A stretch of 64,000 bases of DNA from the NCBI GenBank assembly GCA_015233675.1, contig JADFXH010000001.1, positions 76,563-140,562 on the forward strand. The letters run 5' to 3'. The position numbers and the translations under genes were made by a program. The stretch comes from Candidatus Omnitrophota bacterium. Its GTDB lineage: Bacteria; Omnitrophota; Gorgyraeia; Zapsychrales; Fredricksoniimonadaceae. Of this stretch, positions 5,145 through 58,360 are shown piece by piece. The notes beneath the pieces are model-generated. The model was not told the origin of the DNA and did no database searches. It worked only from the letters and a program-made list of their open reading frames with translations. Every line of letters begins with the position of its first letter. Position 1 is the first letter of the stretch.

Positions 5145-5585
5145 TTACTGGCTCTCATCCCTGGTCGTTGAAAAAGAAACATCCGAAAGATTTGAACGCC
5201 CGCAGGCATCCAGGACTTGTATCACATATTTATGGTAGCTTAGCTCATCAGCACGGATAATGACTCTTTGATTTGGGAATAGTTTTGAAACTTCTCTAAG
5301 CATGATTTCCAGGCCGTTGCCGGTATATTCCTTCTGGTTAACAATAAAACGCCCGTCTTTGGTAATATTAATAACAATCTTGCCGGAACTTTGAGAGGGC
5401 TGGATAGCTGTTTTGGATTTTGGCAGTGTCAGGTTCACCTGGACTTCCATCTGGTTAAAGACAGCAATGATCATAAAAAACATCAAAGCCCAAAAAGCTA
5501 TATCTACCAAAGGAGCTAATTGGATCATCGGCCGTTGCTTATGATATTCGGAAAAATCAAATTTAGGCATAAACAGCTCCCGCAT
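5145..5585 (-). CDS. exbD: biopolymer transport protein ExbD/TolR
   Basis: 146 aa with a single N-terminal TM (LAPLVDIAFWALMFFMI) and an ExbD-like periplasmic domain. Follows exbB. Confidence 0.8.
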   Translation of the reverse strand: MRELFMPKFDFSEYHKQRPMIQLAPLVDIAFWALMFFMIIAVFNQMEVQVNLTLPKSKTAIQPSQSSGKIVINITKDGRFIVNQKEYTGNGLEIMLREVSKLFPNQRVIIRADELSYHKYVIQVLDACGRSNLSDVSFSTTRDESQ

Positions 5586-10281: not shown

Positions 10282-10526
10282 GGTTCTGTCAAAATTCTTG
10301 CAGGTTATGCATGAGAAGAGATATTATTTGCTCAACGGGATATTTTCGCCGTTGGCGTCGGTTTACAGCAAAAATGTTCAAAAGCTTCTCTTCATTTGGA
10401 ACATTTTTGCTGTAAATCCTAGCCAACTTTTGGCGAAAAATCCCTGAATGTTTCGCAAACAATATCTCTTCTCATGCATAACTCCCAATCCTTGCGCAGG
10501 CCGTCCATTGCATTTTTCACTAGCAT
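10282..10526 (-). repeat. intercistronic framework element with family-A hairpin cargo (amt|glnB spacer)
   Basis: Left end ggttctgtcaaaattcttgcagg and a degenerate right end catttttcactagc. It fills the amt stop to glnB RBS spacer. Confidence 0.7.
10305..10482. mobile_element. family-A long inverted repeat (MITE-like hairpin, 178 bp)
   Basis: Arms ttatgcatgagaagagatatt.../...aatatctcttctcatgcataac. Nearly identical to 48175..48352. A short derivative lies at 21734..21812. Confidence 0.75.
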
Positions 10527-12664: not shown

Positions 12665-13000
12665 TCACCAATTATTTGGTTTATTATCCACTAGGTTAAT
12701 TATAGTGTTTTTACCATAAGCGATAACGTATTGGATAATCACAGGATCATCTAGCTTAATTTCTACTGATGTCATATGTTGAGAAGTAGACCAATATAAG
12801 ACTGCTTCAGGTCCGATATAAAATGTCATTACTGAATCTTTTGTTTGTATACTAATAAGGCCAGCCTCCACGCCCACTTTAACTACCTTCCCAGAAATAG
12901 TTTTTATATTCCGATCATTCATCACTTGCTGACAATATGCCGCACTAGATATAAAAACTGCTGTTAACACAACAAAAGCAATCACCTTAAATTTAAACAT
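12665..13000 (-). CDS. small secreted protein, unknown function
   Basis: The track ORF starts in repeat-derived sequence. The real start is probably ATG at 13000 (MFKFKVIAFVVLTAVFISSAAYC signal peptide), preceded by GGAAGGAGAG. Confidence 0.5.
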   Translation of the reverse strand: MFKFKVIAFVVLTAVFISSAAYCQQVMNDRNIKTISGKVVKVGVEAGLISIQTKDSVMTFYIGPEAVLYWSTSQHMTSVEIKLDDPVIIQYVIAYGKNTIINLVDNKPNNW

Positions 13001-13008
13001 TCTCTCTC

Positions 13009-13215
13009 CTTCCACATAATTCCACTAGTTTTCCTATTGATTAGGTCGGGCCAACGCCCTTCCGCATAATTCCACTATATTTTCCCACTGATTAGGTCGG
13101 GCCAACGCCCTTCCACATAATTCCACTAGTTTTCCCACTGATTAGGTCGGGCCAACGCCCTTCCACATAATTCCACTAGTTTTCCCACTGATTAGGTCGG
13201 GCCAACGCCCTTCCG
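13009..13215 (-). repeat. 50-nt RBS-bearing leader repeat, 4 tandem copies
   Basis: Unit cttccacataattccactagttttcccactgattaggtcgggccaacgcc, with copy starts at 13009, 13059, 13110 and 13160. The gene-proximal end provides the SD of 12665..13000. Confidence 0.85.
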
Positions 13216-13227
13216 CCAAAGTTGGTT

Positions 13228-13686
13228 TCACTTACCATACATAGCTTGCAACTGAGCCTCTGAAGGAATTTGATCATAATACTCCCCTTGCGGCCCGACA
13301 TAACCGTTCCCGGATCTTTTAAGCACGACTGCGGTATATCCTCCGTTGCTATTGGAAACATTAATAGTAATAGTGTCTCCGGAATATGTTGCCGATGGGA
13401 CAAACACAGGAGCTGGTTGGGTTACAATGACCGGCGCTGGCTGAGAGGGCGGCTCTGGCTTTTGAACCTGAGACCCTACTGCCGCCCCAGTGACGGCACC
13501 CACCGCGCCGCCAATAAGCATTCCAACTCCAGTGTTATGACTTTGATGCCCTATGACACCTCCAGCGACTGCACCAAGAAGGCCTCCGGCAACTGCCCCT
13601 TCACCGGCATTATTATAAGGATTAGCGCAACCGGAAATGACCGCTAAAAAAACGACAATAGTTAATTGATAGAAATATTTTTTCAT
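13228..13686 (-). CDS. glycine-zipper lipoprotein (paralog 2)
   Basis: Lipobox AVISGC. Aligns along its full length with 7573..8031, with only scattered substitutions. Confidence 0.6.
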   Translation of the reverse strand: MKKYFYQLTIVVFLAVISGCANPYNNAGEGAVAGGLLGAVAGGVIGHQSHNTGVGMLIGGAVGAVTGAAVGSQVQKPEPPSQPAPVIVTQPAPVFVPSATYSGDTITINVSNSNGGYTAVVLKRSGNGYVGPQGEYYDQIPSEAQLQAMYGK

Positions 13687-13744
13687 ATTTATGACCTATG
13701 TCAAGGTTTTTATGTTTATAAAATTATTAACGGGATTTTTATCG

Positions 13745-13762
13745 GGCCGACACAAGGTCGGC
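13745..13762. repeat. REP-like hairpin (GGCCGAC-acaag-GTCGGC)
   Basis: Same family as gggcggacacaaggtccgccc at 37957..37977, with a degenerate copy at 56494..56520. Confidence 0.6.
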
Positions 13763-13774
13763 GCCTACAAACTT

Positions 13775-20284: not shown

Positions 20285-20297
20285 AAGCTGAATACTC

Positions 20298-20398
20298 CTT
20301 CCTTAAAATTCCATAAACCTTTCCATTGATTAGGTCGGGCCAACGCCCTTCCTTAAAATTCCATAAGCCTTTCCATTGATTAGGTCGGGCCAACGCCC
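20298..20398 (-). repeat. 50-nt RBS-bearing leader repeat, 2 tandem copies
   Basis: Copies start at 20298 and 20348. They fill the entire paaK stop to ACT start spacer. The 3' end reads AAGGAAGGAGT upstream of the ATG at 20284. Confidence 0.85.
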
Positions 20399-21697
20399 TT
20401 ATAATGACCTTTTATCAATGATACGTTTGGACTTGCCTTCGCTTCTTTCAATGGTCTTGGGCTCAACTAAACGGACCTTGACGCCGATGCCAAGCACCGA
20501 CTCAATTTCTTTGGCCACATGATGTTCAAAATTCTGCAGCTTTTTGACCTCATCCGAAAAAAATGATTCTTTAAGCTCAACTAAAACCTCCAGCTGATCT
20601 AAGCCCTTTTCTCGCTCGACCACAATTTGATAATGCGGCTGAGTGCCCTCAATGTTTAAAAGGACTTCTTCTATCTGCGAAGGGAAAACATTAATGCCCC
20701 GAACAACAATCATGTCATCAGTCCTCCCTAAAACTTTACTGATACGCGCAGACGTGCGGCCGCAAACACATTTTTCACAATCAATGGTCACAATGTCCCG
20801 GGTCCGGTAACGGATAAGAGGCATACCGACTTTAGTTAATGACGTGATCACCAATTCACCGCGACCAGAAGGGCCCACTGGCTTTAATGTCACGGGGTCA
20901 ATGACCTCAGGATAGAAAACATCCGAAAAAATATGCAGCCCTTTTTTACAATGACATTCACAGGCAACTCCCGGACCGATAATTTCCGAGAGGCCATAAA
21001 TATCAATTGCCTGGATGTCCCATCGTTCTTCAATATTCTGGCGCATAGCCTCGCTCCAGGGCTCGGCCCCCAAAATCCCGATTTGCCAATGACTTTTCTT
21101 AGGATCTAACCCGAGTTCCCTAGCTGTTTCTGCCATGTATAACGCATAAGAAGGTGTGCAGGCTAAAATCCTTGGCTTAAAATCCTGCATGATCTTAAGC
21201 TGACGCTTGGTCTGGCCGGAAGAACAAGGTATGACCGTCAGCCCTAAAAGCAAACTTCCGTAATGAAGCCCCAAACCGCCGGTAAAAAGTCCGTATCCGT
21301 AGGCGATCTGGATGATGTCACCCGGCAATGCACCCGCACAACACAGCGACCTGGCAATGACATCGGCCCACAGGTCAAGGTCTTCTTTACTATACCCCAC
21401 AACCGTGGGATTGCCGGTGGTGCCGCTGGATATATGAATTTCACGAATGTCCTTCATGGACGAAGAAAAAATCCCAAAAGGATAATTCTCCCTTAAATCA
21501 TCTTTAACGGTAAAAGGAAGCCTTACGATATCCTCAATGGATTTGACACTGCCGGGTGCAATTTTTGCCTCATCAAATTTCTTTTTAAAAACAGGAGATT
21601 TTTGATACACATAATCAACAATATGGCAGAGCCTTTGCGATTGAATTTTTTTTAGATCTTGCGGGTCCAAACACTCGATTTTTTCATTAAAAATCAT
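20399..21697 (-). CDS. paaK: phenylacetate-CoA ligase family (PaaK/F390 synthetase-like)
   Basis: 432 aa, SSGTTGNPT AMP-binding motif, YRTRD. Confidence 0.85.
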   Translation of the reverse strand: MIFNEKIECLDPQDLKKIQSQRLCHIVDYVYQKSPVFKKKFDEAKIAPGSVKSIEDIVRLPFTVKDDLRENYPFGIFSSSMKDIREIHISSGTTGNPTVVGYSKEDLDLWADVIARSLCCAGALPGDIIQIAYGYGLFTGGLGLHYGSLLLGLTVIPCSSGQTKRQLKIMQDFKPRILACTPSYALYMAETARELGLDPKKSHWQIGILGAEPWSEAMRQNIEERWDIQAIDIYGLSEIIGPGVACECHCKKGLHIFSDVFYPEVIDPVTLKPVGPSGRGELVITSLTKVGMPLIRYRTRDIVTIDCEKCVCGRTSARISKVLGRTDDMIVVRGINVFPSQIEEVLLNIEGTQPHYQIVVEREKGLDQLEVLVELKESFFSDEVKKLQNFEHHVAKEIESVLGIGVKVRLVEPKTIERSEGKSKRIIDKRSL

Positions 21698-21721: not shown

Positions 21722-21854
21722 GGTTCTTGCAAGTTATGCATGAGAAGAGATATTGTTTGCTCAACGGGATATTTTCGCCGTTGAGCAAACAATATCTCTT
21801 CTCATGCATAACACCCATTCCTTGCACACGCGTTTTCATATAACTTTTGACACT
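21722..21854 (-). repeat. intercistronic framework element with short family-A hairpin (iorB|paaK spacer)
   Basis: Truncated left end ggttcttgcaag and right end cttttgacactacc. The right end overlaps the last codons and stop of iorB. Confidence 0.7.
21734..21812. mobile_element. family-A inverted repeat, 79-bp deletion derivative (perfect ~34-bp stem)
   Basis: ttatgcatgagaagagatattgtttgctcaacgg / ccgttgagcaaacaatatctcttctcatgcataa. Confidence 0.75.
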
Positions 21855-22345
21855 ACCTGCCTGCGGCCTTGATAAAAATATTCTTTATTCTTATCTTGCT
21901 TTCGGCTAAAGGTGTCATTAATGGCTTTTAGCCAAGAGTCCTCTTTAATTGGTAAAAATGAAGAAACAACCCCTAACATGAAAGCATTTAAAAAAATTTT
22001 TTGTTCACCAACCACCTTATGGGCTTTAGTCAAGTAAGAATATAAATCTATTCCGCCTTTTCTCAATTCCGAAATCAGCCTCGGGTATTCACTCTCATAT
22101 AAACACACCAAAATATCCACCTTCCCTTGTTCAGGCAGTGGTGACAAGACACAAGCTCCAAAGCGCACATAGGATTCCACAGACCCGCCGCGCTGGGCCA
22201 TGCCCTTGACTTCAGACTTTTTGACATGATAGCCGTCGTTAAGTGCCGCCAACGCACAGATCTCAGAGGCAGACAAAACGCCCTGGCCCCCTATCCCAAA
22301 AAACAATATATTGGTTGTCTTGATTTTATCGCTCACTGATCGCAT
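21836..22345 (-). CDS. iorB: indolepyruvate:ferredoxin oxidoreductase subunit beta
   Basis: 169 aa with GIGGQGVLSASE... Follows iorA with a short overlap. Confidence 0.8.
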   Translation of the reverse strand: MRSVSDKIKTTNILFFGIGGQGVLSASEICALAALNDGYHVKKSEVKGMAQRGGSVESYVRFGACVLSPLPEQGKVDILVCLYESEYPRLISELRKGGIDLYSYLTKAHKVVGEQKIFLNAFMLGVVSSFLPIKEDSWLKAINDTFSRKQDKNKEYFYQGRRQVVSKVI

Positions 22346-24070: not shown

Positions 24071-24099
24071 TTAAGATGCTTCGCTTTGCTCAGCATGAC
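24071..24099. repeat. GAAGGATC/GTCATYCTGA-family REP-like repeat (single arm)
   Basis: ttaagatgcttcgctttgctcagcatgac, between iorA and metX. Confidence 0.55.
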
Positions 24100-24119
24100 G
24101 ATAGATTAGAGCCGTACGG

Positions 24120-26218: not shown

Positions 26219-26270
26219 CTTCCATATAATCCCACTAAGTTTTCCTATTGATTAGGTCGAGCCAACGCCC
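26219..26270 (-). repeat. 50-nt RBS-bearing leader repeat, 1 copy
   Basis: cttccatataatcccactaagttttcctattgattaggtcgagccaacgccc. It supplies the GGAAGGAGC SD of cysK. Confidence 0.8.
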
Positions 26271-26283
26271 TTATGCTTTAGTT

Positions 26284-27739
<1,456 letters not shown>

Positions 27740-30046: not shown

Positions 30047-32191
30047 CTAAGCATTTAATAGTAGTATTTCAGCGTAACTGGGCAATGGCCATATATTAGC
30101 CGGAACCAACCCCTCAAGCTCATCAATGGCCTCACGCAATTTAGCCATGCCGGCAAATATTTTAGCTGCGTCATGCTTGGACAATGCGGCTTCCAAGGCG
30201 TCAACAGCGTTCAAAGACTGCTCTATTAAATTGGAAACCTGCTTTAACAACTTCTTTTGACCCTTGGTTTTTCCGATACCACCGACGGATTTGACGGTTT
30301 CTGCCAGCTCTTTTTGATACTCAACGGCCGCCGGGATCAACTGTGTCCGGCTCATAGCAACCGCACAATCGCCTTCTAAAACCAAAACCGTATTATAGGC
30401 ATGTTTGTTGATCTCATAACGAGAAGCAATTTCTATTTCGGTCAAAACACCATGTTTGACTAAAACCTGAATATTTTTCCTGGCCTTTATGGCTTGCAGC
30501 GCATCCGACGTATTCCTTAAATTCGGAAGACCACGCTTTTTTGCTTCAATTTGCCACTGAGGAACATAATTGTCCCCATTATAAACTACCTTCTTGTGTT
30601 TCTTTATAATCTCCTGGAGGACCTTCTGCAGACTAGCGTTAAAATCCTTACCTGTCTTCTTGTCTGCTTCCAGCTGATCACAAATATCAGAAATAGCCTC
30701 AGCCACAATGGTATTGAGCACCATGTTAGCAGCTGAAGGATTCATATTTGAACCCACCGCGCGAAATTCAAACTTGGCGCCGGTAAAGGCAAATGTTGAA
30801 GAACGGTTGCGATCTGTCGTGTCTTTGGCCAATTGCGGCAAAGAATCAACTCCCACATGCAAAACACTGCCTTCTTTAGAGGTTTTAGCCCCGCCTTTCT
30901 CAATTTGATTAATAATATCAGTTAGCTGGTCTCCCAAGAAAATGGACACAATCGCCGGAGGAGCTTCATTGGCCCCCAGACGGTGATCATTGCCGGCCGT
31001 GGCAATACTGACGCGTAAAAGATCGGCATAGGTATCAACACCTTTAATAACCGCACAAAGAGTCGCTAAAAACTTGGCATTATCATGCGGCGTTTTTCCC
31101 GGATACAGCCAATTTTTACCATCGGGACCAACCACCGACCAATTATTGTGCTTGCCGGAACCGTTTATGCCGGCGAATGGTTTCTCATGCAACAGACAAA
31201 CCAACCCATGTTTGTCAGCTATCTGACGCATAACTTCCATGGCCATCATATTATGATCAACAGCTATATTAAGTTCTTCATAAATAGGAGCCATTTCATA
31301 CTGAGCCGGAGCCACTTCATTGTGACGGGTCTTAGACGGCATGCCCAAACCCCACAACGTGCGGTCCAAATCCTCCATAAAACCCATAATACGCGGTTTA
31401 ATGGCACCGAAATAATGATCTTCCTGCTGTTGATGCTTGGCTGGCTTTCTACCGAAAAGCGTACGTCCGGTTTGCACCAAATCCATGCGTGCCTCATAAT
31501 GGGCTTTGTCAATAAGAAAATATTCCTGCTCAGGCCCTAAGGTACAATAGGCCCGTTTGCCGTTAGCATCAATACCAAAAAGATCAGCCAAACGACACAC
31601 CTGCTTGCTTAAGGCCACCATAGAACGCAGCAAAGGCGTCTTTTTATCCAATGCTTCACCGTGATAACCAACATAGAATGTTGGTATGCACAAAGTAGTA
31701 GCTTCAGGGCCTTTTTTAATGAAGGCTGGAGATGACGGATCCCAACCAGTATAACCGCGGGCCTGGAAAGTCGCGCGCAGTCCGCCGGAAGGAAAAGATG
31801 AAGCATCCGGCTCTCCTTGTATAAGCTCTTTGCCGGAAAAATTTAAGACGACCCCGCCTGCATCATCCCAGGCAATAAACGAATCATGCTTTTCAGCGGT
31901 GACACCGGTCATCGGCTGAAACCAATGCGTAAAATGCGTGGCCCCCTTGGCAATGGCCCATTTTTTCATTGCCTCTGCTACTTCATCGGCAATGGAAACA
32001 TCCAGCTTACCGCCTTCCTTAATAGTTTTTTCGATGGAAACATAGGCTTTGGGAGAAAGGGACTCTTTCATCGCCTTAAGATTAAATACATTTTCGCCGA
32101 AATGTTCAGGCAAATGTTCACTGAAATTACCGCTACAAGCGCACCCTTCAACACAAGCCGCCTGAATGACTTCTTCACGGACTTGACTCAT
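30047..32191 (-). CDS. glnN: glutamine synthetase type III
   Basis: About 714 aa, GS-III length and pattern. The ATG at 32191, preceded by CAGGAGGG, is preferred. The track start (TTG at 32224) lies inside the repeat end TTTTGACAGAACC. Confidence 0.85.
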
Positions 32192-32213
32192 AGACCCTCC
32201 TGATTTTAAATAT

Positions 32214-32419
32214 GGTTCTGTCAAAATTTTGCTTGCCTTATGACGCGGGGCCTGTCCTTAGCCTCAACATTAAGGGGCTCCTTAGGCGGGGGCAACCTTA
32301 ACAGCAGCACCGACGGTAGTATTCCCTAAACAGCCCACTTGCGCAGGTGCCGTGCGCGCCTTAATATTGAGACCAAGGACACCCGCTGACGCATCTTTCA
32401 ATAAACCTTTATCGCTACC
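32214..32419 (-). repeat. family-B structured element, copy B1 (leader of glnN)
   Basis: About 206 nt. Framework ends ggttctgtcaaaatttt / aaacctttatcgctacc. 22-bp stem gtccttagcctcaacattaagg / ccttaatattgagaccaaggac. Confidence 0.8.
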
Positions 32420-32441
32420 TTAAATATGGAGCTCACTTACT

Positions 32442-33866
32442 TTAAAATTTCACCGCAAGATTGGCAATGGCCTGGCTGGCTGTACTGCGATTCACGTTTG
32501 ATAGAACAGTTCCAGGAACGTACCAACCTACATTAACACCGAAAGTAACATCTTCAGTGTAATTATAGGTCAAGTTGACATCAGTTTCATTGCCCAAGCT
32601 ATATGCATCATGTTTTGTAGCAGGACCTATTGCAGTAGCCCCGCCATCAGGCTGATATAAGGCCAATAGATTTTGATTGCCGTATGGATCTGCAGCCCAC
32701 AATCCACTCCAAGTAACAGCGGCAGTCACATCTTGCAGAGGACTAATTGAAGCCCCCAAGGCAACGATGTTCTGGTTGGATAAAGGAAAAATAGAACGGT
32801 AAATTGTGCCAGCGCCTTGAATTGTATTAAACTCATCCCATGCACTGTAATACTTGGCAGACTTAACAGCATTATCATGATAATTTTCCGCGCTGTTCTT
32901 GTCACCTGAAACATAAGTATACGAAGCATTCACAGTCGGTTTGTATTTTTCCAAAACCGGCAATGAATAACTGGCCAATACTTGAGCGGCCATGGCATCA
33001 CGGTGCTCTGCTTCTTGAGAAGAGCCAACAGTAACGGGATGATTACCAAGTTGCCAAGCTAATTCACCCTGAATATTCAACCCTTTAACAGGATTGGTGC
33101 TTGCACGTAATCCTGGCACATAAAGGGTATCCCCTTTATCGGCCGGCGTAGTAACGCTACTTACAACAGGCCCCTGAGGAACTATTGTATTGCCATTAAT
33201 TCTAGTAAATAAGTAGGTTTCTAAAACTGTGTTATAAGGATCGCTTAATTGATAATTAGCATTTAACCCATAAACATCAGAATTTGCCCCATTTTGGCTA
33301 TAAACACCCTGGATTGAATTCGTCGTCTGACCATTCTTGAAATAGATTAAGTCAATGGTCAATGGCTTATAATCTAATGTGGCCTTAACACCGTCATAGG
33401 CTGTTCTCAAAGTCAGGTCCTGCGCAATGTTCTGCAAACTCCCTGTTCCCTGGTTGACCGCACCGCCATCACCCAAGATAAGGCCATTACCATAATTGAA
33501 CACTTGGCGACCTACAGTCACTGTGAGCGGTGAATACAAAAGCTCACGCAAAGTGATAGAGGCCAGATACAACTGTACATTGGTATCGCCGCTGCCCTCT
33601 GCGTTCCAGGCGCGTTCATTGATCAAGCCAACGGTTGTGGAAACATGATCGGTTAAATCAGCGTCCACACGTAGACGGGTTTGGGTAAGAAAAACACTCT
33701 GTTTTTTAAGGCCTGTAGGGACACCATCCACGTCCAGTCCCAGGTCAAAATCATTGCGGTCTAAATACGTGGATGTGATATCCCCGCTAACTTTCACGTT
33801 CTGGATAGCCGCAAAAACCGGTGAAGCCATTAATACTACCATTGCTGCAACTAATAATTTTTTCAT
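32442..33866 (-). CDS. outer-membrane beta-barrel porin (unknown specificity)
   Basis: Signal peptide MKKLLVAAMVVLMASPVFA, alternating beta-strand pattern, C-terminal ...LAVKF. Confidence 0.55.
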   Translation of the reverse strand: MKKLLVAAMVVLMASPVFAAIQNVKVSGDITSTYLDRNDFDLGLDVDGVPTGLKKQSVFLTQTRLRVDADLTDHVSTTVGLINERAWNAEGSGDTNVQLYLASITLRELLYSPLTVTVGRQVFNYGNGLILGDGGAVNQGTGSLQNIAQDLTLRTAYDGVKATLDYKPLTIDLIYFKNGQTTNSIQGVYSQNGANSDVYGLNANYQLSDPYNTVLETYLFTRINGNTIVPQGPVVSSVTTPADKGDTLYVPGLRASTNPVKGLNIQGELAWQLGNHPVTVGSSQEAEHRDAMAAQVLASYSLPVLEKYKPTVNASYTYVSGDKNSAENYHDNAVKSAKYYSAWDEFNTIQGAGTIYRSIFPLSNQNIVALGASISPLQDVTAAVTWSGLWAADPYGNQNLLALYQPDGGATAIGPATKHDAYSLGNETDVNLTYNYTEDVTFGVNVGWYVPGTVLSNVNRSTASQAIANLAVKF

Positions 33867-33891
33867 TTGATCCCTCCCACAGATTTAAAAA

Positions 33892-34096
33892 GTTCTGTTA
33901 AAATTCCGCTTCTAGATGACGCGGGGCCTGTCCTTAGTCTCAACGTTAAGGGGCTCCTCAGGCAGGGGCAACCTTAACAGCAGCACCGATGATGGTTTTC
34001 CCTAAACCACCCACTTGAGCAGGTGCCGTGTGCGCCTTAACATTGAGACTAAGGACACCCGCTAATCCATGTTTTCATAAAACTTTTGACACTACC
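33892..34096 (-). repeat. family-B structured element, copy B2 (leader of the porin gene)
   Basis: 205 nt, collinear with B1 and B3. Ends agttctgttaaaattcc / aaaacttttgacactacc. Confidence 0.8.
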
Positions 34097-34120
34097 ATTT
34101 AAAAAACTATTTATTTAGAT

Positions 34121-34267
34121 TTATTTTCTACCCTTCATGGCCTCAGGCTTGAGGATTAAGAAATACTGATGTACTAATTTCTTAAGCTCTTTCAGGTTCT
34201 TTTGATGGATGCTTTCTTTTATTGTTTTCCTTAATTCTGTTAATCTTTTATGTTGTGTCTTTTCCAT
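34121..34267 (-). CDS. candidate small basic helical protein (48 aa), below the ORF-track threshold
   Basis: Own translation: MEKTQHKRLTELRKTIKESIHQKNLKELKKLVHQYFLILKPEAMKGRK. Weak AAGGG upstream. It fills the otherwise empty PII-to-B2 gap. Confidence 0.25.
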   Translation of the reverse strand: MEKTQHKRLTELRKTIKESIHQKNLKELKKLVHQYFLILKPEAMKGRK

Positions 34268-34653: not shown

Positions 34654-34706
34654 CTTCCATATAATTCCATTAAATTTTTCTATTGATTAGGTCGGGCCAA
34701 CCGCCC
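34654..34706 (-). repeat. 50-nt RBS-bearing leader repeat, 1 copy
   Basis: cttccatataattccattaaatttttctattgattaggtcgggccaaccgccc, directly upstream of the PII start. Confidence 0.8.
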
Positions 34707-34725
34707 TTGGTTTAACTCCCCCTAA

Positions 34726-34750
34726 CCCCCTCTTTATACAAAAGAGGGGG
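34726..34750. repeat. CCCCCTCTTT...AAAGAGGGGG hairpin repeat
   Basis: 10-bp perfect stem, preceded by tttaactccccctaa. The same module is at 43748..43770. The shared 5' flank alone recurs at 56421..56445. Confidence 0.7.
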
Positions 34751-34755
34751 AAAAT

Positions 34756-36633
34756 TTATATAGCCCATACGCCATCATCCGCGGTACGGATGCGCCTAGC
34801 TTGGGATGCGTCGATAACAAAGATCTTCCCGTCTCCGACATTTCCAGTTCTAGCCCCTTCACTGATAATGTCCATGACAGCCGGGACATCCCATTCTTTA
34901 ACCACACAGTCCACTTTAACTTTTGGAAGAAAATTAATATCGCCATTTTCTTTATCATCATTAATACTGCCTTTTTGGCGGCCAAAACCTCTCACCTTCG
35001 TGACAGTCATCCCCATGATGAAATCTTCCTGGCGCAGGGCTTCAACCACCAGGTTAAGATACTCCGGTCGAATAATGGCCGAAACCATTTTTAACTTATA
35101 TGATTTGTTCATCGTTGTGACGGCAACATAAAACAAGCTTATGAAAGCCCATGCACCTGCGATACCAAAACATATCCATGCTTCATTCTTGGCATCATTA
35201 TTTCCGATGATATACAGATAAAGAATGGCAGCAACCATGATGATATTGGCGAAAAGCCCCAATATAGGTACAAAACCATGTTTCAACACATTAAAATCCG
35301 CTCTTTTTTTAAAAGCGATAAAAGCGGTTAGACAAGTCATCCCATAAAGAATAAATGTCCCAAGGTTCGATGCTAACGTAATACCGGTTAAACCAACGAC
35401 TGACCACACCCCGATACCACCTATAATAGAGGAAATGATGGCCAATACCCAAATAGCAACGTGGGGCGTGCTGAATTCTCCGTGCATAAACCCTAACAAT
35501 TCCGGGAATTCCCTGTCTTCAGCCATGGCACAGCTGACACGAACAGCGGTATTCATACAGCTTAATGTTGTTCCGATGATCGCGATAGCAACGGTAATCG
35601 CAATTGTGATCATCAAGCCAAACCCGATCCCTCCCAACAGATTATCTCCCAAGAGTTTTGCTAAATCGCCGATAGGAGCACTTGAAGCTGCGGCGGCATC
35701 AAGACCCATAACAGCTTTTCCTGCTGCGGTCCCGGCAAGTTTATCGCTGATCATTAATCCCGTACAAAAATATTCAAACAAATAAGCAAACAATCCTTGT
35801 ATTACTAAAGCCAGAATGATCGCTTTAGGAATATTCTTTTGAGGCTCTTTGGTTTCAGCGGCAAGCGCCGTACAACTTTCAAAACCAACGAGGATCAATA
35901 TAGCAATGGTTGATTGCACCATCACACCCATTAATGAATGTGGTTTTATAACATCCAAAGCTCCGGTAAATGACCAAGCTACCGTATGTTGCGGATTGGC
36001 CACTCGATACCAAATAGCCAAACAGCTAAAGATCACTAAAGAAACAAGCTGGATTCCATTGATCCAAATTGAAGTCAGGGTTGAGCCGGTTATGCCGCGA
36101 TAAGCGATATAAGCACAAACAAACGTAAAAACGACTCCAACACCAACAAGCTCAGGGTTGGTCAAAGTTTTGCCTGTAAACTGGGTATAGATGTAGCCCA
36201 GCAACATCGCCATCATCGCCACCATGACGCCCGGATAAACCCAATAAAATAGATGCGCTGACCATGCAGTAATTAGTTTGGCAAAACGTTTGCCAGTAAA
36301 AGGAGAATCTTTTTCAGGAGTTCCCTCAACTTTCGTTTTAGAAAAAGTCTTTTCCACAAAATAGCAGACACTTTTAAAACCCGCTTCCGGATAAATCCCT
36401 GCAAGCTCTGCATAAGAAATGGCAGACAAGAACGCCACTATTAAAGCTACTATGATACCCGCCCAAATATCACTGGCAACTGAACTACCATCAGGGGCGG
36501 TTGCCCCTGCCTGTAACTGATACGTAATCCACAAAAACGCCCCCGGAGCGATAAGAGCCATAGCGTTTACGGTCGCACCCAACAATCCAAGAGTAGGTTT
36601 AACCACCGGTTTTGTTAAATCAACTGTAGCCAT
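34756..36633 (-). CDS. APC-family permease fused to a C-terminal P-II domain
   Basis: About 500 aa of 12-TM permease. The last ~110 aa read KMVSAIIRPEYLNLVVEAL...VRGFGRQKG...FLPKVKVDCVV...GDGKIFVIDASQARRIRT, a complete PII fold signature. Confidence 0.75.
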   Translation of the reverse strand: MATVDLTKPVVKPTLGLLGATVNAMALIAPGAFLWITYQLQAGATAPDGSSVASDIWAGIIVALIVAFLSAISYAELAGIYPEAGFKSVCYFVEKTFSKTKVEGTPEKDSPFTGKRFAKLITAWSAHLFYWVYPGVMVAMMAMLLGYIYTQFTGKTLTNPELVGVGVVFTFVCAYIAYRGITGSTLTSIWINGIQLVSLVIFSCLAIWYRVANPQHTVAWSFTGALDVIKPHSLMGVMVQSTIAILILVGFESCTALAAETKEPQKNIPKAIILALVIQGLFAYLFEYFCTGLMISDKLAGTAAGKAVMGLDAAAASSAPIGDLAKLLGDNLLGGIGFGLMITIAITVAIAIIGTTLSCMNTAVRVSCAMAEDREFPELLGFMHGEFSTPHVAIWVLAIISSIIGGIGVWSVVGLTGITLASNLGTFILYGMTCLTAFIAFKKRADFNVLKHGFVPILGLFANIIMVAAILYLYIIGNNDAKNEAWICFGIAGAWAFISLFYVAVTTMNKSYKLKMVSAIIRPEYLNLVVEALRQEDFIMGMTVTKVRGFGRQKGSINDDKENGDINFLPKVKVDCVVKEWDVPAVMDIISEGARTGNVGDGKIFVIDASQARRIRTADDGVWAI

Positions 36634-37741: not shown

Positions 37742-37943
37742 GGTTCTGTCAAAATTCTGCTTCTAGATGACGCGGGTCCTGTCCTTAGTTTCAACGTTAA
37801 GGTGCTCCTCAGGCAGGGGCAACCTTAACAGCAGCACCGATGGTGGTTTTCCCTAAACCGCCCACTTGAGCAGGTGCCGTGCGCGCCTTAACATTGAAAC
37901 TAAGGACACCCGCTAATCCATGTTTTCATAAAACTTTTGACAC
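37742..37943 (-). repeat. family-B structured element, copy B3 (amt|glnB spacer, leader of glnB)
   Basis: 202 nt. Ends ggttctgtcaaaattctgc / aaaacttttgacac. Stem gtccttagtttcaacgttaagg / ccttaacattgaaactaaggac. Confidence 0.8.
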
Positions 37944-37956
37944 AAACTATTTCAAC

Positions 37957-37977
37957 GGGCGGACACAAGGTCCGCCC
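37957..37977. repeat. REP-like hairpin GGGCGGAC-acaag-GTCCGCCC
   Basis: Perfect 8-bp stem immediately after the amt stop. Confidence 0.7.
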
Positions 37978-37984
37978 CTACTGT

Positions 37985-41000: not shown

Positions 41001-41072
41001 AATGTTCTCCTTAAGCCCCGCCATGCACGCGTGCCCCTTGGGATAATTTATAAAGCTTTTGACACTATCATC

Positions 41073-43700: not shown

Positions 43701-43747
43701 AAGAAGATCCTTTAAAAAAATTTACTTCTTTTAACTAACTCCCCCCA

Positions 43748-43770
43748 ACCCCCTCTTTACAAAAGAGGGG
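43748..43770. repeat. CCCCCTCTTT...AAAGAGGGGG hairpin repeat
   Basis: ttttaactaactccccccaa + ccccctctttacaaaagaggggg, upstream of nrdA. Confidence 0.7.
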
Positions 43771-43898
43771 GGGGGAACAATATAAGAAGGCCCTTTAAGC
43801 ATCAATTAGTTGTATGTGTAAAAATTATATACACAATATATAGTATTTTGTAAAAAATTTATAAAAAAATAATATTAGTTTAGCGCGTTGAAAAGACG

Positions 43899-47023: not shown

Positions 47024-48127
47024 TTACTGTTCCTGCGGTTGGGGAGCCATGTCGTTTTTGGGCACAACCGTATTATCTACCTCGACAGGGCTGCCATTAT
47101 GCAGTTTCAGTTGTCCGCTGGTCACGACCCAATCGCCTTCCTTGATTCCTTTAACCACAGCAATCTGGTCACCGCGGGTTTCACCTGTTTCAATAAAAAC
47201 CTGCTTTGCGACATTATTATCGACGACAAAAACGGTCTCTCCATAAGGGTTAAAGGTCACCGCGGTCTGTGGAAGAGTCAAACGTTTTTCCTCCCCCCCC
47301 TCCTTGACTTCAAGGTCCACAAACATACCTGGTATAAGTTCATGGTTTAGATTAGGGACCATGGCCTCGACCTGAAAGTTCCTTGAGTCAGACTCCACCC
47401 TAGGACTTATAGCTGTGATTTTTCCTGTAAATAAACGTCCCGGATACGTATCTGTCGTCAGGACAATTTCCTGATCAAGGGAAACTCTGGCCAATTCCTG
47501 TTGAGGCAAATTAAAATCCACCAATAACACGTCCAGCGACTGCAAGGTCACCAGCATTTCTCCCGGGGTTATGTACTCTCCGACATTGACCCGATTGATC
47601 CCCAACTTTCCGGCGAACGGAGCGCAAATGGTTTTCTTACGGACAAGTGCGGCCTGTTGATCGGCCAAGGCTTGAGACGAATTAACCTGGGCTTCGTCAG
47701 AATCCACAACCGCCCTACTGATGGCCTGGGCCTCAAATTGCTTTTTATCGCGGGCGTAAACAGTCTGGGCCAGTTGGGCTGAAATTGTCAACGATCTTAA
47801 AAGAGCAATATCCGTCTGTGCATTGAGAAGGACCAGAATATCTCCTTTTTTAACCTGATCCCCTGACTTCATACGGACCTCGGCAACGATCCCGGGAATT
47901 TCGCTAGTCACATCCACACCATGCTGGGCCCTCAGGCTCCCCACTGCTTTGATATGCTGCTGCCAGGGCATGGTTTGCGCCTTAATCGCGGACACGACTG
48001 TCGCAGGAAATTTCATGGCCTTCATGGCTTTCCCCATCATCATCCCTCGATAAAGCGGGACACCAAAGACCACCGCCAGAATAAAACACAAAACCACGAG
48101 CATGATCAGCATACGTTTTATCATCAT
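47024..48127 (-). CDS. RND efflux periplasmic adaptor (membrane fusion protein)
   Basis: 367 aa, HlyD/MFP pattern. Lies between the OMF and RND genes. Confidence 0.85.
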   Translation of the reverse strand: MMIKRMLIMLVVLCFILAVVFGVPLYRGMMMGKAMKAMKFPATVVSAIKAQTMPWQQHIKAVGSLRAQHGVDVTSEIPGIVAEVRMKSGDQVKKGDILVLLNAQTDIALLRSLTISAQLAQTVYARDKKQFEAQAISRAVVDSDEAQVNSSQALADQQAALVRKKTICAPFAGKLGINRVNVGEYITPGEMLVTLQSLDVLLVDFNLPQQELARVSLDQEIVLTTDTYPGRLFTGKITAISPRVESDSRNFQVEAMVPNLNHELIPGMFVDLEVKEGGEEKRLTLPQTAVTFNPYGETVFVVDNNVAKQVFIETGETRGDQIAVVKGIKEGDWVVTSGQLKLHNGSPVEVDNTVVPKNDMAPQPQEQ

Positions 48128-48151
48128 ATATTTCCTTTATTATGTTTCCGC

Positions 48152-48448
48152 GGTTCTGTCAAAATTCTTGCAGGTTATGCATGAGAAGAGATATTATTTG
48201 CTCAACGGGATATTTTCGCCGTTGGCGTCGGTTTACAGCAATAATGTTCTAAAGTTTCTCTTCATTTGGAACACTCTTGCTGTAAATCCTAGCCAACTTT
48301 TGGCGAAAAATCCCTGAAAGTTTCGCAAACAATATCTCTTCTCATGCATAACACCCAATTCTTGCGCAGGCTTATACTGATATAAAAATTTTAACCAGAA
48401 CAATATATCAGTGTCGGCCGTCCATTGCTTTTTTGCTTTTGACACTAC
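48152..48448 (-). repeat. intercistronic framework element with family-A cargo and small-hairpin module (OMF|MFP spacer)
   Basis: ggttctgtcaaaattcttgcagg [family A] acccaattcttgcgcagg cttatactgatat...cagtgtcggccgtccattgc...ttttgacactac. The right end contains the OMF stop codon. Confidence 0.75.
48175..48352. mobile_element. family-A long inverted repeat (MITE-like hairpin, 178 bp)
   Basis: Same length and nearly the same sequence as 10305..10482. Confidence 0.75.
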
Positions 48449-49881
48449 TGTTTCCGCTCATCCCACCATCCGCCGCCCAGTGCCTGAAAAAGAGCTGCCG
48501 TATCGGCAAATCGGACCGCATAAGCCTGCACAAGCCCTATTCGAGCTTCACTATCCTGACGTTCGGCTGTTAAGAGCTCTATATAGCTGATTGCCCCGGC
48601 CTGAAATTGTGCTTTGGCAATTTTGAGGGATTCGTCAGCCGCCACTTGCGCGTTTGATCGCGCATTCATCGCGGCAACATCAGCCTCCAGGGCCCGAAGC
48701 ACATTTGCCACATCCTGAAACGCCAACAAAACGGTCTGTCGATATTGCGCCAGGGCCTCGTCATACGCTGCCTGAGCAGAGCGACGCCTGGCCCTCAATT
48801 CTCCGCCATGAAACAAAGGTTGAACGACCCCAGTCCCGAAATTCCAAACTGCATCATTTGTCTTAAACATTTTCTCAAAATGATTTTCCGAAGATCCATA
48901 ACTGCCGCTCAAAACGATCTGCGGCAGAAGATTCGCCGTGGCCACCCCGACATTCGCACTGGCAGCATGCAGCAGCGCCAACGAAGCCTGAACGTCAGGC
49001 CTTTGTTCAATTAAAACAGACGGGAGGCTGACCGGAAGCTCCTTTGGCAAAATAAGGTCCGGCATATGAAACTGCGGCAGCATCCTCTCTTCTCCCGGTG
49101 TTTTACCAACCAGAACAGCCATTTGATGTCGTGTAAAAGCCAACTCCCTTTCCAATGCCGGGATTGAACCCCTGGTTTGTTCAACTAATGTCTGTTGCGA
49201 GAGGACATCGAACCTGGAAATTCCTCCCAATGACAGCTGGTTGTGAAGTATTTTCAACTGTTCTTCCTCATCCGCCAATATCTCTAGAGTCGAGTCTATC
49301 TGCCCCCGCAGAGCTACTTCTTTCCCGGCTGCGGCAACAATATTCGACGTCAAGGTCAAGTAGGCCGCATCTTTTAAGAAATTCGCGTTATCCACTTGGG
49401 CCCTGAGCGATTCCATCTCACGTCTCGCCCCTCCCCACAAATCGAATGCGTAAGAAACATTGACAGATGCTTGATATAACCGGAACAAAGCTCCCTGGGC
49501 CTTGTCCTGCCCCAGAGAGGCTTCATTAATTTTTTGCCGGATGGCGGATAAATTAGCGTCCACAACGGGAAAATAAGTAGCGCCGACATTGGCCCTATAC
49601 TCCTCCTGGGCCTGACGCAAAGATGCCTTAGCTGCGGCCAAAGTCGGAGAGTTAATTAACGCCTCACGGACTAATTCATCCAGGGATTTTGATTTAAATA
49701 GCGCCCACCACTCTTGGGGGATTTTGGCTCCCACAACAAAAATAGGCCCGGCTTTCAACATTCCCGAGGGATAGGCGATGCCTGCGGGGATTGCCGGCTT
49801 CTTAAAGTTCGGTCCCACTGCGCATCCGAAAAGTGTCGGCAAGATCAGTAGCCCTATAAAAAAAATTCTTCGGTCTTTCAT
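48445..49881 (-). CDS. efflux outer-membrane factor lipoprotein (NodT/OprM family)
   Basis: Lipobox TLFGC, two OEP repeats, 478 aa. Confidence 0.85.
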   Translation of the reverse strand: MKDRRIFFIGLLILPTLFGCAVGPNFKKPAIPAGIAYPSGMLKAGPIFVVGAKIPQEWWALFKSKSLDELVREALINSPTLAAAKASLRQAQEEYRANVGATYFPVVDANLSAIRQKINEASLGQDKAQGALFRLYQASVNVSYAFDLWGGARREMESLRAQVDNANFLKDAAYLTLTSNIVAAAGKEVALRGQIDSTLEILADEEEQLKILHNQLSLGGISRFDVLSQQTLVEQTRGSIPALERELAFTRHQMAVLVGKTPGEERMLPQFHMPDLILPKELPVSLPSVLIEQRPDVQASLALLHAASANVGVATANLLPQIVLSGSYGSSENHFEKMFKTNDAVWNFGTGVVQPLFHGGELRARRRSAQAAYDEALAQYRQTVLLAFQDVANVLRALEADVAAMNARSNAQVAADESLKIAKAQFQAGAISYIELLTAERQDSEARIGLVQAYAVRFADTAALFQALGGGWWDERKQ

Positions 49882-51078: not shown

Positions 51079-51087
51079 AAACAGCTC

Positions 51088-51191
51088 CTTCCTTAAAATT
51101 CCACAAACTTCTCCATTGATTAGGTCGGGCCAACCACCCTTCCTTAAAATCCCACTAACCTTCTCATTAATTAGGTCAGGCCAACCGGCCC
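51088..51191 (-). repeat. 50-nt RBS-bearing leader repeat, 2 copies (second diverged)
   Basis: Copies start at 51088 and 51139. The 3' end reads AAGGAAGGAGCTGTTTATG. Confidence 0.8.
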
Positions 51192-56421: not shown

Positions 56422-56493
56422 TTTAACTCCCCCCTAACCCCATTGCTATCCAAATTGTCCGTAGGAGTGGACTTTATGTCGGCATTTTCCGAC

Positions 56494-56520
56494 GGGCGGA
56501 CACAAGGCTCTCCCCTGCGC
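56494..56520. repeat. degenerate REP-like element (gggcggacacaaggctctcccc)
   Basis: The left arm matches the 37957 hairpin. The right arm has decayed. Confidence 0.45.
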
Positions 56521-58234: not shown

Positions 58235-58360
58235 GTCATTCTGAGACGAAGGCCCTCATACCGGGCACTCATTATTATTCGCTGAAGAATCTCTTAATGA
58301 ATTAATTTTGTTGAGATCCTTCGCTTCGTTCAGGATGACACGGCATCTTTTTAGGATGAC
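58235..58360. repeat. inverted pair of GTCATYCTGA...GAAGGATC REP-like repeats
   Basis: gtcattctgagacgaagg (58235-58252) faces gagatccttcgcttcgttcaggatgac (58313-58339), with an extra aggatgac. Confidence 0.65.

Follow-up and report, generated by a model that had tools for sequence, protein, structure and literature searches.

The intergenic repeats described here stem from a lineage-specific burst in which an IS6-like element gave rise to MITEs, and their position just before ribosome-binding sites reflects the target specificity of the whole element group. We found no earlier description of this in the literature, neither of IS6-type elements or any MITE aiming at Shine-Dalgarno sequences or start codons, nor of MITEs in Omnitrophica. 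We consider it likely that the copies are non-autonomous MITEs of a long-type IS6/IS26-like insertion sequence (IS), which were placed by oriented targeting at a fixed distance from the downstream gene and have since been passively co-transcribed. The pattern is more than an ordinary scatter of repeats. Classical DDE ISs with inverted repeats and duplications are usually held to choose their targets loosely. Here, a widespread DDE group uses one spot before start codons, in one orientation, in Bacillaceae, Omnitrophota and many metagenome contigs.

Repeat copies and their ends

The window (the whole stretch of 64,000 nt that was analysed) has a G+C content of 43.9%, and its minus strand holds nearly all genes. 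Seven copies of 111–298 bp and one solo end were found, at a density of ~1 copy per 8–9 kb and all on the minus strand, i.e. in gene sense. The same copies had been listed in the initial annotation, and only some of their coordinates needed slight correction (21857, 33891, 37947, 48449; solo end ~41045-41070). They account for the structured spacers of this Omnitrophica genome (~1 gene in 8 in the window):

10282..10526, minus strand: copy A1, family A, a long imperfect palindrome; upstream amtB1 (stop 10533), downstream glnK1 (ATG 10259)
21722..21857, minus strand: copy A2, family A with the palindrome centre deleted; upstream an iorB-like gene, downstream an AMP-ligase gene
26284..26394, minus strand: copy S1, small hairpin type, inserted into the final codons of metY; downstream cysK
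32214..32419, minus strand: copy B1, family B; upstream a porin gene, downstream glutamine synthetase III
33891..34096, minus strand: copy B2, family B; upstream a P-II gene, downstream the porin gene
37742..37947, minus strand: copy B3, family B; upstream amtB2, downstream glnK2
~41045..41070, minus strand: solo 5' end (GATAGTGTCAAAAGCTTTATAAATTA) in the nrdA-nrdB spacer, the remainder of the element being deleted
48152..48449, minus strand: copy A3, S hairpin plus family A palindrome (48171-48356), in the 3' end of the OMF gene; downstream the MFP of an RND pump

Read in gene sense, the layout runs from the end of the upstream gene through GGTAGTGTCAAAAG(TTTTATGAAAAC), the interior, (GCAAG)AATTTTGACAGAACC and 22–24 nt to the ATG of the next gene. 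Within this common framework the interiors are modular, as initially described, and occur as A, B, S, or S plus A: the arms of the imperfect palindrome that makes up family A measure ~100 nt, family B is a 77-nt branched core within a 31-bp stem, and family S a hairpin of 47 nt. The family A palindrome of copy A3 (48171-48356), also found inside 10282-10526 and 21722-21857, is bracketed by direct repeats CAAGAATT (48357-48364, 48163-48170) inside an S-type element. This bracketing suggests that a second palindromic element inserted into the MITE and later spread via the outer ends. None of the interiors A, B and S was present in any other locus retrieved (relatives, metagenomes, genomes), and they are probably lineage-specific stuffers.

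Both end motifs were strongly enriched in the window. Allowing up to three mismatches, GGTTCTGTCAAAATTCT had six matches (0.21 expected) and AAAACTTTTGACACTACC likewise six (0.11 expected), and the element-associated matches lay on one strand only. The terminal inverted repeats GGTAGTGTCAAAAG / CTTTTGACAGAACC match at 13 of 17 positions in the window, a figure that had been proposed and can be read straight from the sequence, and they are near-perfect in metagenome copies. Besides, perfect 8-bp target-site duplications abut GGTAGTG...CAGAACC in four of the seven window copies, namely S1 (CTTTAGTT at 26276-26283 and 26395-26402), B1 (TTAAATAT at 32206-32213 and 32420-32427), B2 (ATTTAAAA at 33883-33890 and 34097-34104) and A3 (GTTTCCGC at 48144-48151 and 48450-48457), the chance of an 8/8 match at a fixed position being ~1.5e-5; perfect duplications also flank ~10 metagenome MITEs. 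The other three window copies have no duplication: A1 has a degenerate 5' terminal repeat (GCTAGTGAAAAATG) and B3 a mutated 5' tip (GTTTGTG), both without a clean duplication, and A2 has kept a perfect 35-bp hairpin and lost its 3' repeat between AGAA repeats. The window 3' end reads CAGAACC where the family consensus has CACTACC, and judging from this sequence difference the window copies may no longer be mobile.

The elements intrude into the ends of upstream genes. The TAG stops of metY (26390-26392) and of the OMF gene (48445-48447) are the TAG within GGTAGTG of copies S1 and A3, respectively, and iorB reads six codons into the repeat of copy A2 to a TGA stop at 21836-21838; these shared stops had been pointed out before and are all confirmed. 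Once element and one repeat are removed in silico, the original stop of the OMF gene is a TGA overlapping the ATG of the next gene (ATATGATG), and metY ends at a TAA two codons later. Since excision thus restores sensible ancestral junctions, the elements had entered the upstream genes within their last codons. The terminal repeat has stops in three frames (GG-TAG; G-GTA-GTG-TCA-AAA-GTT-TTA-TGA; TAG after 15 codons), and the overlap of the upstream stop with the element is due to these stops together with the minute size of the original spacers. This amounts to a safe-haven strategy, in which the reading frame is never broken and the element itself brings the stops.

Copies A1 and B3 sit in two paralogous amtB-glnK pairs, whose spacers measure 273 and 265 nt in the window versus 13–33 nt, element-free, at five related loci. 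These relatives are loci with 88–91% identical glutamine synthetase III (GSIII), and their sequences are too diverged for an exact empty-site match. Over ~69 kb, the related loci contained zero elements, compared to 7–8 in the 64 kb window. The label 'MITE-like' of the initial annotation was therefore, if anything, too cautious, given the duplications and the transposase-bearing relatives with the same ends. The elements show all MITE features: a length below ~600 bp, multiple copies, no transposase gene, inverted repeats, duplications, ends in common with transposase-bearing elements, and presence or absence at orthologous sites. For annotation purposes, such spacers should be masked as MITEs and not be taken for novel riboswitches or sRNAs.

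Full-length relatives and their distribution

An identical 25-nt end (GGTAGTGTCAAAAGTTYTATGAAAA) bounds elements of 1.7–1.9 kb in metagenomes and Bacillaceae genomes. These full-length elements (1.70–1.89 kb) carry a single gene, on the opposite strand, for an IS6-like DDE transposase of 480–540 aa. A metagenome scan with the 5' end GTAGTGTCAAAANNNNNATGAAAA as query yielded at least 120 loci, which comprise, among the matches listed, MITEs of 150–510 bp with unrelated interiors and near-perfect inverted repeats as well as elements of 1.70–1.89 kb. Two representative transposases were scanned (L177, 490 aa; L142, 481 aa), the longest open frames, of 538 aa, belonging to other clades. Both match the Pfam model DDE_Tnp_IS240 (36–39 bits, cutoff 27), and their match to the NCBIfam model transpos_IS6 spans positions 2–201 of 202 with 81–85 bits, under the cutoff of 125. 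This sub-cutoff score fits the published view of the long clades as at best distant relatives (PMC6807381). The N-terminal ~235 residues of the transposase include CxxC zinc ribbons. More than 3000 homologues were found, many of them in Bacillaceae with ~70% identity and several named IS6 family transposase by NCBI, and the transposase clades are 33–40% identical to one another. Further IS6-type traits are the 8-bp duplication and the short terminal repeats beginning GG.

Searching the window by tblastn with 13 transposases gave no transposase remnant (best E = 0.32), and none was seen at the other Omnitrophota loci; among the loci retrieved, an autonomous copy could not be placed firmly in Omnitrophota. 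Several full-length metagenome copies lack matching flanks, which would fit recombination between copies, yet is not evidence of mechanism. Complete genomic contexts came from three Bacillaceae:

Ureibacillus sp., element of 1830 bp: perfect duplications at 8 of 10 copies with both flanks
Heyndrickxia sporothermodurans, element of 1845 bp: perfect duplications at 4 of 4 copies with both flanks
Amphibacillus xylanus, element of 1833 bp: perfect duplications at the 1 copy with both flanks

Perfect duplications thus surround 13 of the 15 full-length Bacillaceae copies with both flanks. Two Ureibacillus copies break the position rule described below, one (L234) having neither a duplication nor a nearby gene start and the other (L235) a 7/8 duplication at a GGAGG without an ATG; both may be recombination products between copies, or pseudo-sites.

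As a separate observation, full-length elements (L150, L159, L174, L177, L180, L228, L238, L248) share a conserved non-coding block of 150–180 nt between the transposase stop and the element end, ~60–250 nt from the right (gene-sense 5') end. Of its four nested helices, two are built on TIR-like TTGACAAAC / GTTTGTCAA cores, and its purine loop GAAGGGRA is conserved; RNAalifold (7 sequences) gave 44 pairs, 8 of them with compensatory double changes. In the transposase-sense transcript, this loop reads UYCCCUUC and resembles an anti-Shine-Dalgarno sequence.

Within Omnitrophota, four contigs of the MAG UBA10174 break inside the repeat, followed by 22–23 nt and then an ATG, which accounts for these assembly breaks: the contigs end at this repeat just 5' of genes. 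In a second Omnitrophota MAG, tatC and tatA are separated by a 420-nt element with the duplication GCTCAGGA. In the genome collection, the exact 3' 17-mer had 97 matches, which apart from those in these two MAGs were single and scattered. Many chance matches of AGAATTTTGACAGAACC (L001-L097), across phyla, are followed by the same conserved coding sequence (...ILTEPKNAL..., read by eye), which we take to be clpX; as a coding 17-mer, AGAATTTTGACAGAACC is not diagnostic alone. Viral scans with the end and both interiors returned nothing real.

Placement before start codons

We compiled 57 insertion sites from the window, two other Omnitrophota MAGs, metagenomes, Ureibacillus, Heyndrickxia and Amphibacillus. 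A GG lies at +12..+17 in 53 of them and an ATG at 20–26 nt in 54; both are present in 51, compared to a null rate of 2.5% for the combined test at random positions. The opposite element end passes the same test in 3 of 113 flanks, i.e. at the null rate, and the 5' flank shows no motif beyond A/T richness. A typical site consists of the element end, the 8-bp duplication, ~5 nt, a GG-rich Shine-Dalgarno sequence, and an ATG 22–25 nt from the end. In a logo of 37 3' flanks, the duplicated 8 bases are A/T-rich, GG stands at +14/+15 (32 and 35 of 37, respectively) and the ATG follows; the Shine-Dalgarno run is the most informative part. Many metagenome copies lie at contig ends, and only about a quarter of them provided both flanks.

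Element end and ATG are separated by a nearly constant distance (standard deviation 0.90 nt, n = 53). Among the 15 Bacillaceae sites, this distance is 23 nt in 13 and 24 nt in 2, and the 13 duplicated copies there show the duplication, 4–6 nt, the Shine-Dalgarno run, and an ATG at 23–24 nt. The rule is common to MITEs and full-length elements, the latter having their transposase gene divergent from the target gene, and it is kept across transposase clades that are only 33–40% identical as well as by copies that encode one same transposase protein inside single Ureibacillus and Heyndrickxia genomes. A non-random position and orientation, proposed at the outset as the key test, holds in the window, in the other Omnitrophota MAGs, in the metagenomes and in the Bacillaceae genomes examined.

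In the window itself, the claimed distance of 20–25 nt between the left end and the downstream start applies to six copies (22, 24, 22, 24, 22 and 24 nt; for instance, copy A2 ends 24 nt 5' of the ATG of the AMP-ligase gene), but not to the copy at 26284, where it amounts to 74 nt with another repeat unit in between. The 3' flank of this copy has GG at +14/+15 with no start codon after it (a pseudo-site). Likewise, the proposed placement exactly between a stop codon and the next ribosome-binding site stood on its downstream side only. For 91 metagenome copies, among the matches listed, the upstream gene was co-oriented in 65 and opposite in 26, and the position of the upstream stop ranged between 284 nt before the element and 36 nt within it. 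A split of 65:26 is about what would be expected for neighbouring bacterial genes.

Could selection alone produce such a pattern? Purifying selection certainly removes intragenic insertions, and this counts against reading the pattern as targeting. Insertion might then be random, with merely an AT-rich preference, and selection would leave the harmless copies just 5' of ribosome-binding sites; the compact genomes, the A/T-rich duplicated targets and the expected purging of intragenic insertions all agree with this. However, such a process predicts a minimum distance, whereas the elements lie at 22–25 nt in ~90% of sites despite upstream spacers of up to 284 nt being available. It also leaves the strict orientation unexplained, as the last 18 nt adjoining the target are identical in either element orientation. 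No copy was seen between convergent genes. Moreover, the copies with the same transposase inside single Ureibacillus and Heyndrickxia genomes already obey the rule. The persistence of the rule across divergent transposase clades, the tandems described below and the pseudo-site next to the copy at 26284 likewise speak against selection alone. We therefore favour targeting over selection, since the distance is fixed and the orientation strict, instead of a minimum distance with both orientations, and regard random insertion followed by purging as very improbable.

In the preferred reading, that of targeted MITEs of a long-type IS6/IS26-like element, a transposase supplied in trans would recognise the 25-nt right end and the 18-nt left end (...AAAACTTTTGACAnnAC), and insertion would create the 8-bp duplication. 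An asymmetric machinery would pick the target at the DNA level such that the 8 duplicated bases come to lie ~5 nt 5' of a purine-rich Shine-Dalgarno run, which would put the left end 23 ± 1 nt before the start codon and leave the transposase gene of a full-length copy facing away from the target gene. The regularity itself is established statistically, and the recognition step might be a task of the extra protein domains or of some other factor. Where a compact genome has only tiny spacers, insertion would then occur at or in the end of the upstream gene, with the repeat supplying the new stop, and the copies would now be read through as highly paired inserts in operon mRNAs.

Which of the two landmarks is better fixed differs between lineages. 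In Bacillaceae, the start codon is better fixed (standard deviation 0.34 nt) than the Shine-Dalgarno run (1.43 nt), which is odd for simple DNA motif recognition; in Omnitrophota the relation is reversed (0.85 for the start codon vs 0.56 for the run). The machinery could conceivably read both the Shine-Dalgarno run and the start codon and insert 23 nt upstream, possibly via an element-encoded RNA such as the covariation-supported non-coding block of the Bacillaceae elements with its anti-Shine-Dalgarno-like loop. The element would then be a DDE transposon assisted by RNA, and the Omnitrophota MITEs would exploit its system, but we hold this version to be quite improbable. The element end was also considered as a mimic of the target and this was rejected, as the GG and ATG spacings fail to align. 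Either way, the pattern raises the question of how a transposase senses a translation-initiation region in DNA and, if the specificity is portable, it could permit precise placement of cargo upstream of genes.

Two tail-to-head tandems were seen before a single gene start each, one in L180 (an IS, 4 nt, and another element's 5' end) and one in L047 (a complete element preceded at 9 nt by a solo 3' end, 5405-5421). Such arrangements would be expected if one target were used repeatedly.

Element structure and comparison with known repeats

A different view holds that the framework is a selected intercistronic RNA domain which controls processing, stability or translational coupling, and that this function explains the placement. 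All copies lie on the gene strand within operons, and ~70–75% of the element bases are predicted to be paired. The fold of family B is better in sense (-79 to -85 kcal/mol) than in antisense (-60 to -78 kcal/mol), with 7–13 versus 4–5 G-U pairs, and in its long stem 5 of 5 variable pairs stay paired among the three copies, 2 of them via double changes, so that the sense-strand G-U pairing hints at a constraint at the RNA level. There is also precedent among other repeats: when co-transcribed, Correia elements have their terminal repeats cleaved by RNase III, and ERIC can change the decay of an mRNA in which it unmasks an RNase E site (PMC10969869).

On the other hand, the family A fold has no strand asymmetry, and the three family B copies are few, the more so as templated repair can give compensatory changes in palindromes. 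The pairing of the two ends, through which the whole spacer was suggested to close into one domain, appears in the minimum-free-energy fold of the copies at 33891, 37742 and 48152 but not in that of the other four. The interiors are absent outside the lineage among the loci retrieved. Over the whole window, only a tRNA-Arg reached the Rfam gathering score, and at E <= 1 the regions 32150-34150 and 48100-48500 gave nothing real (one chance miRNA match). Above all, the target-site duplications denote insertion, not local evolution, and the same placement and orientation are found for 1.8-kb copies whose transposase gene runs antisense and, in other phyla, for MITEs whose interiors are unrelated. 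As the full-length copies share it, the placement is a property of insertion and not evidence for an evolved RNA domain; the RNA-domain reading is not needed to explain it, and we regard it as unlikely.

For the MITEs as placed by targeting, read-through in operon mRNAs is the most likely fate, judging from predicted signals: the scanned elements showed no excess of promoter-like or terminator-like sequences, and none of these on the gene strand. By analogy with the repeats above, co-transcription and RNase III processing of the copies are possible. When element and ribosome-binding site were folded together, the accessibility of the latter was intermediate (0.39–0.88), with no clear insulation effect. 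A hybrid promoter involving the TTGACA of the 3' end was rejected on geometry, as its -10 box would fall on the Shine-Dalgarno run (+13..+18).

Nitrogen-assimilation genes (amtB, glnK, GSIII) adjoin several copies, and the ends contain TGTCA...TGACA, which might make them operators of a nitrogen-gene regulator or, alternatively, REP/BIME-type palindromes moved by a tyrosine transposase. Yet copies also occur in metY-cysK, iorB, an RND efflux operon and nrdAB, and 8-bp duplications, terminal inverted repeats and relatives with a DDE transposase are not REP features, so that this proposal is hardly credible. The GlnR/TnrA-type box is TGTNA-N7-TNACA. As read from their sequence, the ends do not fit it, and this operator type was rejected, also in view of the copies in unrelated operons.

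Among known elements, the transposase-bearing relatives resemble ISTet2, ISHahy6 and ISHco2, which form clade VIII of the long IS6/IS26 elements (Harmer & Hall 2019, PMC6807381), equivalent to clade i (Varani et al. 2021, PMC7986276). The latter are 1.7–1.76 kb long, encode a DDE transposase of ~450 aa with a zinc finger and a further N-terminal extension, and create 8-bp duplications (PMC6807381, PMC7986276). Set beside ISTet2 by description, the full-length relatives found here have the same domains with 1.70–1.89 kb and 481–538 aa, while the window holds transposase-less derivatives only. For long IS6-type elements, the family reviews give neither experimental data nor a target preference (PMC6807381, PMC7986276). 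Only two IS6-family MITEs are catalogued in ISfinder, MITEBth2 and MITEHarch3 (PMC6807381), of 227 and 336 bp (PMC7986276), which likewise combine both IS ends with the lack of a transposase gene. The present elements differ from them in having at least three interior families on one framework, a density of ~1 per 8–9 kb and a strict position rule.

Several families of small intergenic repeats offer a looser comparison. Correia elements duplicate TA. Correia (Neisseria), ERIC (enterobacteria) and BOX/RUP/SPRITE (pneumococcus) are likewise small, intergenic, co-transcribed and hairpin-forming, Correia and ERIC having terminal inverted repeats and BOX being modular (PMC10969869, PMC3049150). However, none of these repeats is reported to keep a constant spacing to start codons in a single orientation, and their duplications and parents differ.

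For oriented, fixed-distance targeting, the best analogue that we found is the IS1202 family (ISAjo2 group) at dif/pdif sites, a DDE-type IS with terminal repeats that is reported to lie 5 bp from the XerC site, with distance and orientation both fixed (PMC10132070). The analogy has its limits, as the target there is an XerC-binding site present once or a few times per replicon, whereas here it is a translation-initiation signal that stands before most genes. IS900 (IS110 family), an element with a DEDD transposase that lacks both terminal inverted repeats and a regular duplication, inserts between a ribosome-binding site and a start codon, in one orientation. Its insertions fall inside the interval between Shine-Dalgarno sequence and ATG, while the elements described here lie upstream of it. 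Target choice in the IS110 family is reported to be RNA-guided (PMC11187229).

Besides the MITEs, the window contains other repeats. A second intergenic repeat forms a 50/51-nt tandem array at 12958-13262 (core ATTGATTAGGTCGGGCCAACGCCCTTCC) and occurs as single units at 20295-20400, 26237-26301, 34672-34736 and 51085-51185, in one orientation throughout; one unit lies directly between MITE S1 and the cysK start. A G+C-rich hairpin (GGGCGGACACAAGGTCCGCCC) is found three times in spacers (13737-13766, 37950-37979, 56487-56516), one copy being located just upstream of MITE B3, after the amtB2 stop. Furthermore, there are TTAAGATCCTTCGCTTCGCTCAGAATGACA-like 30-mers at 908-937, 24071-24100 and 58311-58340, and a CCCCCTAACCCCCTCTTTAYAAAAGAGGGGG repeat at 34713-34750, 43736-43773 and 56430-56454 that contains the inverted repeat CCCCCTCTT / AAGAGGGGG. 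Finally, a gene at 34756-36633 on the minus strand encodes a 625-aa protein that joins an amino-acid permease to a C-terminal P-II domain, and sits in a nitrogen cluster together with two amtB-glnK pairs, another P-II gene, a porin and glutamine synthetase III.
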